Assembly: GCF_030384885.1 (NCBI RefSeq)
Contig: NZ_CP128613.1
Source of the DNA: Escherichia coli
GTDB lineage: Bacteria > Pseudomonadota > Gammaproteobacteria > Enterobacterales > Enterobacteriaceae
Strand: one strand, 5' to 3'
Length of the DNA: 64,000 nt
Position numbers and translations under genes: made by a program
In this document: one piece after another, positions 24,952 to 31,912 of the stretch
How the letters are laid out: the number at the start of each line of letters is the position of its first letter
Numbering within the stretch: the stretch's first letter is position 1
The notes under the pieces: model-generated
The model's input: the letters and a program-made list of their open reading frames with translations, nothing else
Told to the model about the DNA's origin: nothing
Database searches by the model: none

Positions 24952-24966
24952 TTAGTATAAAAAAGC
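24952..24966. repeat. att core at the P-arm side (B'-O-P junction)
   Basis: cgctcaag + ttagtataaaaaagc + tgaacgcgaaac...: attB B' arm, common core, then sequence matching the lambda P arm (cagtcactatgaatcaactacttagatggtattagtgacctg). Confidence 0.9.
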
Positions 24967-25309
24967 TGAACGCGAAACAACAAAAGCCAATAATATCAAT
25001 GTGTTAAAATACATTTAGTCTAAAAAATAGACTGCATGATACTACAAAAAACAACATATCCAGTCACTATGAATCAACTACTTAGATGGTATTAGTGACC
25101 TGAGACAGAGCATTAGCGCAAGGTGATTTTTTGTCCTCTTGCGCTAATTTTTTGTCATCAAACATATCGCACTCCAGAGAAGCACAACACCTTGCAGTCC
25201 AGTGCAAAGCTTTGTGTACCAGAGTTTTCCTCATCAACTACCGCAAGTATCGATCGATTGAGACTTGGATGATAGACTTCATACCTTTCAGAACTCATTG
25301 ATTAAATAA

Positions 25310-25672
25310 ATGTTAAATATATTTGCAAGGTACACCTCGATTGGTGTGCTGAACACACTTATACACTGGGTGGTTTTTGGTGTATGTATCTATGCCGCGC
25401 ATACCAATCAGGCTCTGGCAAACTTCGCAGGTTTCGTTGTGGCTGTGAGTTTTAGCTTCTTCGCGAATGCAAAATTCACATTCAAAGCATCAACTACAAC
25501 GATGCGCTACATGTTATATGTCGGGTTCATGGGAACACTCAGTGCTACTGTTGGATGGGCTGCTGATAGATGCGCACTTCCCCCGATGATAACTCTTGTC
25601 ACCTTCTCCGCCATCAGCCTGGTGTGCGGTTTCGTCTATTCAAAGTTCATTGTCTTTAGGGATGCGAAATGA
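25310..25672 (+). CDS. gtrA: GtrA bactoprenol-linked glucose flippase (120 aa)
   Basis: 120-aa 4-TM protein of the GtrA family, immediately inside the att site and followed by gtrB. Confidence 0.85.
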
Positions 25673-26583
25673 AAATTTCTTTAGTCGTTCCGGTCTTTAA
25701 CGAAGAGGCCACGATACCTATTTTTTATAAAACTGTGCGCGAATTTGAAGGGCTTCAGCAGCATGAAGTCGAGATAGTCTTCATAAACGATGGCAGCAAA
25801 GACGCTACAGAATCAATTATCAACGAGCTTGCTGTTGCCGACCCGCTTGTTGTTTCGCTGTCGTTCACACGTAACTTCGGCAAAGAACCCGCCCTGTTCG
25901 CAGGTCTGGACCATGCTACCGGGGAGGCAATTATCCCGATTGACGTTGATCTGCAAGACCCTATCGAAGTTATTCCTCACTTGATAGAGAAATGGCAGGC
26001 CGGTGCAGATATGGTTCTGGCTAAACGCTCTGACCGCTCCACTGACAGCAGGCTGAAGCGTAAATCTGCTGAGTGGTTCTATAAGCTTCATAACAAAATC
26101 AGCAACCCTAAGATAGAAGAAAATGTTGGCGACTTCCGGCTCATGTCTCGCGAAGTAGTAGAAAACATTAAGCTCATGCCAGAACGAAACCTGTTTATGA
26201 AGGGTGTGCTGAGCTGGGTTGGTGGTCGAACCGATGTCGTAGAATATGCGCGAGCAGAACGAGTTGCAGGAAGCACAAAGTTCAATGGATGGAAGCTATG
26301 GAACTTGGCGCTGGAAGGGATCACTAGCTTTTCTACTTTCCCTTTGCGCATGTGGACTTATATAGGCCTGTTTGTGGCAACCTTATCATTCCTTTATGGA
26401 GCATGGATGATTGCTGATAAATTGATGTTTGGAAATAGTGTTCCAGGTTACCCTTCTATCATTGTATCAATATTGTTTCTTGGTGGAGTTCAGTTAATAG
26501 GCATAGGAGTTCTTGGAGAGTATATAGGAAGAATTTATGTTGAAGTTAAGCAGCGACCAAGATACATTCTAAAGGATAAGTAA
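25669..26583 (+). CDS. gtrB: GtrB bactoprenol glucosyltransferase (GT2 family, 304 aa)
   Basis: N-terminal GT2 domain (LVVPVFNEE...INDGSKD...DVDLQDP) with C-terminal TM helices; overlaps the gtrA stop. Confidence 0.9.
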
Positions 26584-26584
26584 A

Positions 26585-28051
26585 ATGACTTTAAATATAA
26601 AAAAAACAGCCATATACATCATTGGATTTATATTCTTGACTTTCTTCTACGCCTCGATTTCAAAACAGATTTTGCCAAGTTCGGATGCTGTTTCTGGACT
26701 TCTTGAGGGTAAGGACATTGCGGACGGAAATTGGACGCTTAGTGGATGGTATCTCTCTACAGTATCATTCTATTTTACAGACATAATATGGTACGGGCTT
26801 GCTTCAAAGGTATTCTGGTACGGACAGTACCAAGCATACTGCATACCGGCAATTATGTATTCAATGGTTACATTGATGACATTTTATCTTTCAAAAGAAA
26901 GGCTTTCATCGTTATGGGCCATTTCATTTTGCGTTGCGCTGCCTTCTGGGTTTGCAGTATTAAACGTATTAATACCTGTGATACATGTCGGCACATATGT
27001 ATCCATGTTGTTTTGCTTCATAATGTTAGACAATTTTTCCAAAACAAGATCGTTAATTTCTCTATCTCTTTATATTTTAGTGTTAGCTCTAGCTTGTTTC
27101 AGTGATGACATCATAAAGCTACTCATTATTGCACCAGTAGCAATATCATCAGTGATTTTTATAGTAAAAACCAAAAGCCAAAAAAATCTGATCATACTAG
27201 TTGCAACTATATTTGCATATGTTGCATCAAAAATTATGACCATGTACGCAAGAGCTCATAACTGGTACATTTTGCCAGGCGTTCCAGATCCAACATTTGT
27301 TGCATTTGATGATATCCTGAATAATTTATACTTATTCGTAAAAGGATTCCTCCTATACAGTGGAGCTTTCTTCTTTGGCAAGCCACCTTCTGATATTACA
27401 GCGCTTATTTCTGTTTTTTGTTTTGTTGTAATGATTTTACTTCTTATATTAGTTGCAATGTCAGTAAAGGAAATATTCAAAACCTCCATGATCAATATGG
27501 CTATATGTATAGCTTGTATTATAATGATACCAGCATACCTTGCAAGTAACCGTCCAATAGATGAATGGACTATAAGATATATCGTTCCATTTTTTATACT
27601 AGCACCTGTTGTTATTGGCAGATCTAACAACTCCAGAGGGTGGAAATTCATCGCATTAGGGGTTGTTACAACATTTATTCTCTTTTGTTCTATTTATATG
27701 CATGAAAAAAAAGACAATTCTAATGATATTATAAATCAGATAAAACACACTGTAAGGCAGAATAACCTCACAAACGGGTATGCATCTTTCTGGTTTGCTT
27801 CATCAGCAAGTATAGATGGAGACATATCAATTGCTCCGATTGATGTAAACCGAGGTTTGAATATACTTGCATGCAATAAATGGTTGTCAAAAAACTATTG
27901 GTATGAGCGCGGAGGAAATTTCATAATTACAGATGACGAGGTTATGAGAAATATAACAATTAAAGAGATTGGTAATCCATCAAAGGTTATTGACGTCGGA
28001 GATAAGAAGATTTTTGTTTACGATAAAAACATTACATTCAACTGCAATTAA
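26585..28051 (+). CDS. GtrC-type serotype-specific O-antigen glucosyltransferase (polytopic membrane protein, 488 aa)
   Basis: Third gene of the gtr cassette; very AT-rich, about 10 TM segments and a C-terminal soluble domain; poly-A8 tract at codons 5-7. Confidence 0.65.
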   Translation: MTLNIKKTAIYIIGFIFLTFFYASISKQILPSSDAVSGLLEGKDIADGNWTLSGWYLSTVSFYFTDIIWYGLASKVFWYGQYQAYCIPAIMYSMVTLMTFYLSKERLSSLWAISFCVALPSGFAVLNVLIPVIHVGTYVSMLFCFIMLDNFSKTRSLISLSLYILVLALACFSDDIIKLLIIAPVAISSVIFIVKTKSQKNLIILVATIFAYVASKIMTMYARAHNWYILPGVPDPTFVAFDDILNNLYLFVKGFLLYSGAFFFGKPPSDITALISVFCFVVMILLLILVAMSVKEIFKTSMINMAICIACIIMIPAYLASNRPIDEWTIRYIVPFFILAPVVIGRSNNSRGWKFIALGVVTTFILFCSIYMHEKKDNSNDIINQIKHTVRQNNLTNGYASFWFASSASIDGDISIAPIDVNRGLNILACNKWLSKNYWYERGGNFIITDDEVMRNITIKEIGNPSKVIDVGDKKIFVYDKNITFNCN

Positions 28052-30194: not shown

Positions 30195-30747
30195 CGGAAA
30201 GCGTTTTGATCATGGTGACCAGGTCGCTGGCGTTACCATAAAGGCGTTTCCCGGTACGCCACATTTTCTGCACCTGCTCAACGAAATTTTTGCCTGACGA
30301 TGGCGGCGGCAGAAGTACCGAGATATCCCCCTGCAACAGCCTGGCGGCATCCGATACGGCAGAATCCACCACTTTCATCGCATCAGAAACATACCCCAGC
30401 ATTGTGCTGGCATTACCGACGACGTCGTTCTGCACAAAATCCGCCACGCCATCGATACTGAAACCTCTGAAACTGTCACTGATGCAGTCATCCAGTGCAG
30501 AACAGGATGACATCAGCGTCTGCGCCGTCGCCGCACCTGATGTGGGGTAAGAGAGTTCTCCCGCTTCGACAAACTTCAGGTCAAAGCGGACAATACGCCC
30601 TTCATTCTTCGATGTGCTGACCCGAACTTCCCCGTCAACACAGACTTTCAGCTCACCGTATGTCGGATGGACAAGCGTGCCGGGACCGGGTTTATTCAGC
30701 GCGTCAATCAGGCGATCGCGCTGGTCAAAGCAGTCATCTCCCACCAC
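30091..30747 (-). pseudogene. baseplate (J-like) gene fragment, truncated by the internal prophage deletion and frame-disrupted at its 3' end
   Basis: ORF overlaps the next gene by about 100 nt in another frame and ends in an atypical ...[14 protein letters not shown] tail; its 5' end abuts the deletion junction next to int. Confidence 0.4.
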
Positions 30748-30795
30748 ATAAGCCGTGATGGACGGGCGGAAAGTGATTTTCCCCAGGTCTTCGGT

Positions 30796-31824
30796 AACCT
30801 TTATATAAGAAACAATGGATATTACTGCTACAGGGACCCAAGGACGGGTAAAGAGTTCGGATTAGGCAGAGACAGGAGGATAGCAATTACTGAAGCAATA
30901 CAGGCAAACATTGAGTTATTTTCAGGACACAAACACAAGCCTCTGACAGCGAGAATCAACAGTGATAATTCTGTTACGTTACATTCATGGCTTGATCGCT
31001 ACGAAAAAATCCTCGCCAGCAGAGGAATCAAGCAGAAGACACTTATAAATTACATGAGCAAAATTAAAGCAATAAGGAGGGGGCTACCTGATGTTCCACT
31101 TGAAGACATCACCACAAAAGAAATTGCAGCAATGCTCAATGGATACATAGACGAGGGCAAGGCGGCGTCAGCAAAGTTAATCAGATCAACACTGAGCGAT
31201 GCATTCCGAGAGGCAATAGCTGAAGGCCATATAACAACAAACCCGGTCGCTGCCACTCGCGCAGCAAAATCAGAGGTAAGGAGATCAAGACTTACGGCTG
31301 ACGAATACCTGAAAATTTATCAAGCAGCAGAATCATCACCATGTTGGCTTAGACTTGCAATGGAACTGGCTGTTGTTACCGGGCAGCGAGTTGGTGATTT
31401 ATGCGAAATGAAGTGGTCTGATATCGTAGATGGATATCTTTATGTCGAGCAAAGCAAAACAGGCGTAAAAATTGCCATCCCAACAGCATTGCATGTTGAT
31501 GCTCTCGGAATATCAATGAAGGAAACACTTGATAAATGCAAAGAGATTCTTGGCGGAGAAACCATAATTGCATCTACTCGTCGCGAACCGCTTTCATCCG
31601 GCACAGTATCAAGGTATTTTATGCGCGCACGAAAAGCATCAGGTCTTTCCTTCGAAGGGGATCCGCCTACCTTTCACGAGTTGCGCAGTTTGTCTGCAAG
31701 ACTCTATGAGAAGCAGATAAGCGATAAGTTTGCTCAACATCTTCTCGGGCATAAGTCGGACACCATGGCATCACAGTATCGTGATGACAGAGGCAGGGAG
31801 TGGGACAAAATTGAAATCAAATAA
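30796..31824 (+). pseudogene. int: lambda-type integrase, 5'-truncated (corresponds to lambda Int residues 15-356)
   Basis: From NLYIRNNGYYCYRDPRTGKEFGLGRDRRIAITEAIQ... to ...HLLGHKSDTMASQYRDDRGREWDKIEIK* it matches lambda Int as I recall it. The first about 14 codons and the promoter are replaced by unrelated sequence; the in-frame upstream extension to 30667 comes from the opposite strand of a tail gene. Confidence 0.85.
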
Positions 31825-31897
31825 TGATTTTATTTTGACTGATAGTGACCTGTTCGTTGCAACAAATTGATAAGCAATGCTTTTTTATAATGCCAAC

Positions 31898-31912
31898 TTA
31901 GTATAAAAAAGC
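31898..31912. repeat. att core at the P'-arm side (P'-O-B junction)
   Basis: ttgataagcaatgcttttttataatgccaac (lambda P' arm) + ttagtataaaaaagc + aggcttca (attB B arm). Confidence 0.9.

Follow-up and report, generated by a model that had tools for sequence, protein, structure and literature searches.

What is the 7-kb insert at the lambda attachment site of this Escherichia coli chromosome, and what, if anything, does it still do? The insert was analyzed within a window of 64,000 nucleotides (contig NZ_CP128613.1 of assembly GCF_030384885.1), in which it lies between ybhB and ybhC and carries the genes gtrA, gtrB and a third gene in the gtrC position. We consider it very probable that a temperate, serotype-converting phage of the 042p1 type left the insert behind as a locked-in remnant, with a gtrABC cassette that would glucosylate the O unit, likely on the backbone of the O77 group of serogroups.

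The ends of the insert were compared with lambda and with K-12 BW25113. The features found there are as follows.

24952 to 24966, minus strand: attR core (O of POB'), the 15-bp lambda overlap/core on the ybhB (bio) side; exact match.
24967 to 25221, minus strand: lambda-type P arm, 87% identical to lambda 27470-27742 in an alignment running from 24948 to 25221.
24994 to 25006, minus strand: H2, read from the lambda alignment.
25061 to 25070, minus strand: P2.
25072 to 25084, minus strand: H1.
25091 to 25102, minus strand: P1.
About 25189 to 25210, minus strand: sib/tI-like hairpin, from the hairpin listing.
31825 to 31897, minus strand: P' arm (H', P'1-P'3), reaching back across the int stop; 100% identical to lambda.
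31898 to 31912, minus strand: attL core (O of BOP') on the ybhC (gal) side; exact match.

The core sequence, GCTTTTTTATACTAA, occurs exactly twice in the window, both times on the minus strand and thus as direct repeats, whereas 0.18 copies would be expected by chance even with two mismatches permitted. An independent repeat search returned the same 15-bp pair, in agreement with the preliminary description, which had named two direct lambda cores as the borders of the element. The insert between the cores measures 6,961 bp, with bioB-bioA-ybhB to its left and ybhC-ybhJ to its right. On the ybhB side, the match to K-12 is unbroken to 24966, the last base of the core, and there is none beyond. 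Because the homology stops at that base, the insert sits exactly at attB, where it had been placed before. The bases beside the cores are those expected for POB' on the ybhB side and BOP' on the ybhC side, with the P arm inward of ybhB and the P' arm and int inward of ybhC. P1, H1 and P2 are unchanged from lambda and H2 retains the consensus for integration host factor, while the X1/X2/F region has diverged. At the other end, positions 30795 to 31912 are 98.2% identical to lambda int plus the P' arm, with no mismatch in the arm. The phage would have entered by Int-mediated recombination of attP with attB between ybhB and ybhC.

What was lost after integration was read from a comparison of the element with a full-length relative in strain 2021CK-01784, with enteroaggregative E. 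coli (EAEC) 042 and with lambda. The element consists of three collinear blocks joined at two deletion junctions.

24952 to 30153: block A, holding attR, the P arm, gtrA, gtrB, a 488-amino-acid gene, a hairpin, the tail fibre assembly gene tfa, a tail fibre gene and the 3' 478 nucleotides of a gp48/YmfQ-like gene.
30152 to 30153, no strand: deletion junction 1, TT microhomology, from a three-way comparison with both parental sequences.
30154 to 30794: block B, a 641-nucleotide interior piece of a Mu N-like "DNA circularization" gene.
30795 to 30796, no strand: deletion junction 2, TA microhomology, from the parental comparison in 042p1 coordinates.
30797 to 31912: block C, holding int from codon 15, the P' arm and attL.

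In 042p1 coordinates, junction 1 removed about 3,750 bp (the rest of gp48, then gp47, gp46, V, P and the 3' part of the N-like gene), and junction 2 removed about 30 kb, from the N-like gene through the tail, head, lysis, replication and immunity genes and xis into int codon 14. Together the two losses explain the reduction from 40.8 kb in 042p1 to 6.96 kb. The preliminary description was right that most of the phage, xis included, is gone; however, it had assumed a single deletion, and there are two separate junctions. Deletion by an insertion sequence (IS), an idea prompted by the IS3 found in int of a sister strain, was rejected, since both joins are plain 2-bp microhomologies with no IS sequence at either. 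Two illegitimate deletions after integration would thus have stripped about 34 of about 41 kb, leaving an inert piece of the tail module and an intact gtrA-gtrB-gtrC operon under its own conserved promoter block.

The cassette itself lies right behind the P arm, as had been described.

25245 to 25309, plus strand: gtr leader and candidate promoter, conserved with SfV, G4/9, 042 and P22 upstream of gtrA.
25250 to 25255, plus strand: candidate -35, tcgatc, from alignment with P22 and SfV; it holds the sole GATC.
25273 to 25278, plus strand: candidate -10, tagact, from the same alignment.
25310 to 25672, plus strand: gtrA, 120 amino acids, flippase for undecaprenyl phosphate-linked glucose (Und-P-glucose); phrog_2224, E 2.7e-69.
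25669 to 26583, plus strand: gtrB, 304 amino acids, GT2 bactoprenol glucosyltransferase; phrog_841, E 1.3e-166.
26585 to 28051, plus strand: gtrC-position gene, 488 amino acids, predicted membrane glycosyltransferase of the GT-C fold, unnamed family.

gtrA and gtrB are adjacent and co-oriented, with the gtrA stop overlapping the gtrB start. All three open reading frames are intact, and their proteins are 100% identical to those of the full-length relatives. The 488-amino-acid protein had no match in Pfam (E <= 0.001) or NCBIfam, and none by tblastn against 50,697 phage records. Its family profile showed no similarity to SfV GtrV by hhalign (probability 0.15%). Membership in PF14264 (Glucos_trans_II) or in the GtrV family was therefore rejected and the fold was used instead: a search with the predicted structure returned a GT-C glycosyltransferase. 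The protein is thus what the third place in such a cassette calls for, a predicted polytopic membrane glycosyltransferase with a lipid-phosphate sugar donor.

The family of the third gene is small, with 23 clusters in Enterobacterales, every one labelled hypothetical. The gene in the same position of 042p1 (491 amino acids, O44) belongs to it, with 32% identity over the full length (E 5e-81). Another member follows gtrA-gtrB in Salmonella serovar Carrau, and the S. Choleraesuis homologue lies just downstream of the gtrB 3' end with which its contig opens (gtrA out of view), beside a P22-type tailspike. In Carrau (locus 6001-7467), a gtrABC operon 89% identical to that of the window stands alone beside proBA-type genes (Aldedh, AA_kinase/PUA); it has no phage genes nearby and is further reduced than the window element. 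The Salmonella O:6,14 backbone of serovar Carrau is presumably the same as the O77 backbone.

In the mechanism that we propose, GtrB would form Und-P-glucose at the cytoplasmic face of the membrane, GtrA would flip it to the periplasm, and the GT-C-fold protein would move the glucose onto one sugar of the O unit. The likeliest acceptor would be the Man-Man-Man-GlcNAc backbone that is common to O17, O44, O73, O77 and O106 and is carried by the host lineage. O-antigen glucosylation would be the sole plausible activity of the element.

How the operon may be expressed was considered from the region upstream of gtrA. Homology to SfV begins at 25223, directly after the lambda P-arm homology ends at 25221, and about 65 nucleotides ahead of gtrA are conserved with SfV and with the thrW-site element of G4/9, and more loosely with the gtr regulatory region of P22. 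The alignment with P22 and SfV is the sole basis of the promoter assignment. Most Salmonella gtr operons undergo phase variation through four GATC sites and OxyR sites (PMC3688519). Between 24967 and 25309 there is one GATC (25252), which aligns with GATC-4 in the -35 element of the gtr promoter in Salmonella. Upstream of gtrA, the lambda P arm takes the place of the remaining three GATCs and of the OxyR sites, all of which are absent. With a single GATC, Dam/OxyR phase variation was rejected for the window operon, and because the other sites are absent, expression is predicted to be constitutive. The sib/tI-like hairpin of the P arm, which now has ybhB on one side and the gtr promoter block on the other, may shield gtr from read-through.

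Which O antigen would such a cassette modify? O17, O44, O73, O77 and O106 share one O-antigen gene cluster and are not separable by genome-based serotyping (PMC13188871, PMC7685785). The five serogroups differ solely in glucose side branches, which come from gtr genes elsewhere in the chromosome (PMC13188871, PMC7685785, PMC10304059). The gtr genes have been located for O44 only, and the enzymes behind the O73 side branches are described as unknown (PMC10304059). As quoted in PMC10304059 and PMC7685785, Wang et al. 2007 attributed the O44 glucose branch to GtrA, GtrB and "WbbG" on a prophage at ybhB-ybhC.

Among 5,426 complete E. coli genomes, the window gtrC allele is present in 24 and the wzx-wzy pair of O17/O44/O73/O77/O106 in 93. 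At least 19 of the 24 allele carriers are among the 93 (hypergeometric p for 19 or more, 1.6e-30), as counted on the roughly 81 of the 93 genomes listed. The remaining five (C4, M11957, PRO_A-1401-6M-A, JNE25-001 and JNE12-007) are for the most part siblings of carriers already confirmed. The carriers include a cryptic clade I strain (2013C-4282), the ST69 (sequence type 69) Shiga-toxin strains M00057 and M7424, and urinary, bovine, duck and commensal isolates. The cassette is borne by an SfV-like myovirus prophage, by a P22-like podovirus prophage at the same site in ST3, where a tailspike neighbours it, and by a near-thrW element (G4/9), so that the carriers cover several lineages, two phage morphotypes and two chromosomal sites. 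Different gtrC alleles are found in the same slot of O77-group genomes: a PF14264-type allele in 35 genomes, including the O17:H18 reference K12a, and the 042-type allele in 12, with zero overlap between the window-type and 042-type genome lists. The O77-group strain 2018-05-2CC (NZ_AP027877.1) has both a window-type and a K12a-type gtrC (1723580-1725067 and 1795771-1797237), as a serogroup with two glucose additions, such as O73 or O106, would require.

From this distribution, the window GtrC is a candidate side-branch glucosyltransferase for the O77 group. A more specific proposal, which we hold tentatively though as a serious possibility, is that it determines the serogroup of one branched O77-group member, with O73 or O106 the likeliest, or otherwise an unrecognised single-branch variant. 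If so, the three gtrC alleles (window, K12a and 042 types) would separate O17, O44, O73, O77 and O106 from genome sequence. Such typing would reach the ST69 O77g:H18 stx2d lineage linked to hemolytic-uremic syndrome, in which the complete genomes M00057, M11957 and M7424 have the window-type allele. The value of the element lies in this concrete candidate gene, whose GT-C family has no name and whose allele, intact here, is nearly confined to O77-group genomes.

The history of the insert was followed in its close relatives. The right flank (32000-50000, 18 kb) is 100.0% identical to strain 2013C-4282, with all other complete genomes at or below 98.2%, and the left flank (21800-24951, about 3 kb compared) shows no difference from that strain. 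By this measure the window host is very close to 2013C-4282, a cryptic clade I Shiga-toxin strain (PMC10100065) that has stx1 and the O77-group cluster. At the same site, 2013C-4282 has a remnant that kept the baseplate genes and the entire N-like gene, has an IS3 further into int and carries a frameshifted gtrC. Derivation of the window element from this structure was rejected, since the window has int codons 15-36 and the sister is without them. Each strain keeps something that the other lost, and the two are thus independent decay products of a common, fuller insertion. They make a clean example of stepwise prophage decay, in which one insertion has left different wrecks in two sister strains with the cargo region kept in both. 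Within the element the two strains differ at 3 positions in 24952-29468, 1 in int and 38 (2-3.5%) in 29469-30794, which suggests that the last stretch, covering tail fibre, gp48 and N fragment across junction 1, is a recombination tract with another SfV-like prophage. A third remnant, with different junctions, was found in strain EcPF15. The full-length relative in 2021CK-01784 begins at ybhB and ends by torI, an OmpH-family gene and upaE rather than ybhC, a layout that implies a chromosomal rearrangement between prophages.

The gtr region survives in all three remnants, and so do functionless tail-fibre genes. Because useless genes were retained as well, retention alone is no proof of selection, and the element may be a relic of neutral decay in which gtr was spared by the chance of where the deletions fell, is silent or irrelevant in the host and was never domesticated. 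The tail fibre gene, tfa and gene fragments that survive beside gtr speak for this, as do the frameshift in 2013C-4282 and a promoter scan that found no strong consensus promoter; three remnants of the allele are also weak statistics for consistent retention. Set against these are the three intact reading frames with proteins unchanged from full-length prophages, the conserved promoter block and the retention of gtrAB with the entire cassette region in three independent decay products. The Carrau operon, with no phage genes around it, points to long-term retention of the operon alone, and the allele follows one O-antigen backbone across lineages. On this evidence we regard neutral decay as unlikely, though it is the alternative that survives best.

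Several points weigh against our reading of the element as a remnant with a working glucosylation cassette. The preliminary description had called it a domesticated module, and a selective benefit of this kind is plausible, with the useless tail-fibre genes and the frameshifted gtrC of 2013C-4282 on the other side. The frameshift lies in an A8 tract (26599-26606, gtrC codons 5-8) that is A7 in the sister strain, and it could reflect slipped-strand switching, a fixed mutation or a long-read sequencing error; if it is not such an error, at least one close relative appears to do without gtrC. Neither Pfam PF14264 nor SfV GtrV is matched in sequence by the GtrC family, and the generic sigma-70 scan found nothing strong ahead of gtrA. 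The host O group would be the O77 group if it follows that of the sister strain 2013C-4282, the host's own cluster lying outside the window. The O77-group association is partly clonal, and its count covers the listed share of the wzx-wzy genomes. Finally, the O44 precedent applies if, as we infer, Ec042-0853 is the "WbbG" of Wang et al. 2007.

Could the third gene serve another purpose than the O antigen? The fold search says GT-C only, a fold that serves many acceptors, no named family matches, and some Salmonella "GtrC" families cause no visible change in lipopolysaccharide (PMC3688519), so the protein might act on another periplasmic acceptor (enterobacterial common antigen, core or protein) or transfer another sugar. 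However, the gene directly follows gtrA and a gtrB that makes Und-P-glucose, it has the position seen in SfV, P22 and 042p1, and its distribution is very strongly limited to genomes of a single O-antigen backbone. In addition, the homologue in the O44 strain lies at the locus that is reported to make the O44 glucose branch (PMC10304059). We therefore judge a different acceptor or sugar improbable and keep the O unit as the predicted target, with the linkage formed presumably one of the glucose side branches of the group.

Whether the insert can still leave the chromosome depends on int and xis.

30797 to 31824, plus strand: lambda-type int, residues 15-356, fused to 43 foreign codons; 98% identity to lambda Int.

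The homology to lambda starts 41 nucleotides inside int. The first 14 residues of Int (MGRRRSHERRDLPP) are swapped for 43 unrelated codons in an in-frame fusion whose open reading frame starts at 30667, and the part retained includes the catalytic residues. Alignment to lambda thus bore out the lambda arms and int of the preliminary description, but not a complete int, since codons 1-14 are gone. No xis was found within the element, either as an open reading frame or by homology, as it falls in the deletion at junction 2. The regions that hold pI and pL in lambda are also deleted, which removes the int promoters, and the generic sigma-70 scan found no strong promoter ahead of int. The 14 missing residues presumably form part of the flexible N-terminal tail of Int. 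To go by the title of Fadeev et al. 2009, that tail is said to take part in arm-site DNA recognition. Lambda excision requires Xis, and the N-terminal domain of Int contacts the arm sites (PMC4880445). Given this established biology of lambda, and because xis is gone and Int is without its first 14 residues, the element is judged unable to excise by itself and would be a locked remnant rather than an excisable prophage.

The intact cores, a P' arm identical to that of lambda, the conserved P1, H1, P2 and H2 and the intact catalytic and core-binding domains of Int might let a lambda-type helper that supplies Int and Xis move the 7-kb segment like a satellite, but this is highly improbable, since xis, pI, pL and 14 residues of the arm-binding domain are missing, the X1/X2/F region has diverged from lambda, no terminase, cos/pac or replication function is left, and a circle, once excised, could be neither packaged nor replicated. 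Among the open reading frames of the element there are no excision functions of its own of the satellite type and no packaging or helper-hijacking module.

The element was compared with known systems. The closest is 042p1 (ROD15) of EAEC 042 (O44:H18), a 40.8-kb prophage bounded by a 15-bp direct repeat; one half of it resembles lambda, the structural half resembles SfV, and gtrAB plus Ec042-0853 lie at its end (PMC2808357). Phages of this type join lambda int/att and a lambdoid early region to an SfV-like head and contractile tail. The window element shares with it the ybhC-ybhB site, the 15-bp repeat, the lambda-type variant of int and P arm, the SfV-like tail genes (98% nucleotide identity), an identical GtrA and the order attR-gtrA-gtrB-gtrC-tfa-tail fibre. 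Unlike the 7-kb remnant, 042p1 is complete and retains xis; its gtrC belongs to the same family as a divergent member, and its gtrB diverges toward the 3' end. The mosaic of lambda int/att, SfV/Mu-like tail and gtr noted in the preliminary description is borne out by the SfV-like tail remnant, with nucleotide matches of 89-97% to SfV-type phages; it had already been published for 042p1 at ybhB-ybhC (PMC2808357), and the element type is ordinary.

The Shigella flexneri phages SfV, SfI and SfII likewise have a gtrA-gtrB-gtr(type) cassette beside attP, opposite int, their gtrAB and tail genes are 89-97% identical in nucleotide sequence to those of the window, and the three-step Und-P-glucose mechanism described for them (PMC7685785) would by analogy apply here. 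In contrast, they have a P22-type int, the thrW site and a rhamnose-rich acceptor backbone, and their GtrV is without detectable similarity. Salmonella gtr operons in phage remnants (Davies et al. 2013) are similar in being stand-alone or remnant-borne gtrABC (PMC3688519). Their GtrC families are highly divergent and track the O backbone (PMC3688519); the window shares the P22 core promoter block and has Salmonella homologues, but unlike most of those phase-varying operons, with four GATCs and OxyR sites, it has the GATC-4 equivalent only. CPS-53/KpLE1 of K-12 (yfdG-yfdH-yfdI, intS, torI) is also a decayed prophage, of about 10 kb, with gtrAB-type genes by att and tail-fibre remnants (PMC3032704), and gtrAB in relatives of the window are annotated yfdG/yfdH. 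It differs in its argW site and its integrase, and it has kept an integrase and the TorI excisionase (PMC2951348).

The rest of the element consists of a hairpin and the remains of the tail module.

28060 to 28078, no strand: GC-rich hairpin where the gtr operon and the tail genes converge, from the hairpin listing.
About 28235 to 28363, plus strand: partial inverted tfa fragment, from the annotation of relatives.
28335 to 28739, minus strand: tail fibre assembly gene (tfa), 134 amino acids; phrog_188.
28740 to 29672, minus strand: tail fibre gene, 310 amino acids; phrog_863, E 3.4e-91.
29676 to 30153, minus strand: 5'-truncated baseplate wedge gene (Mu gp48/YmfQ-like); phrog_203; collinearity with the full prophage stops at 30153.
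30154 to 30794, minus strand: internal fragment (about codons 43-257 of 442) of the Mu N-like "DNA circularization"/tail protein gene; phrog_184; 98% identical to 2021CK-01784 locus 29105-29749.

Head, lysis, replication and immunity genes are all gone, and the tail genes are reduced to tfa, the tail fibre gene and the gp48 and N fragments. A search of 24000-32500 against Rfam at the gathering threshold gave no match, and no invertase gene was found in the element. The hairpin at 28060-28078 is likely a terminator. The partial tfa is inverted against the intact tfa and overlaps it; it may have been left by a tail-fibre segment that could invert, of the Mu G or e14 P type.

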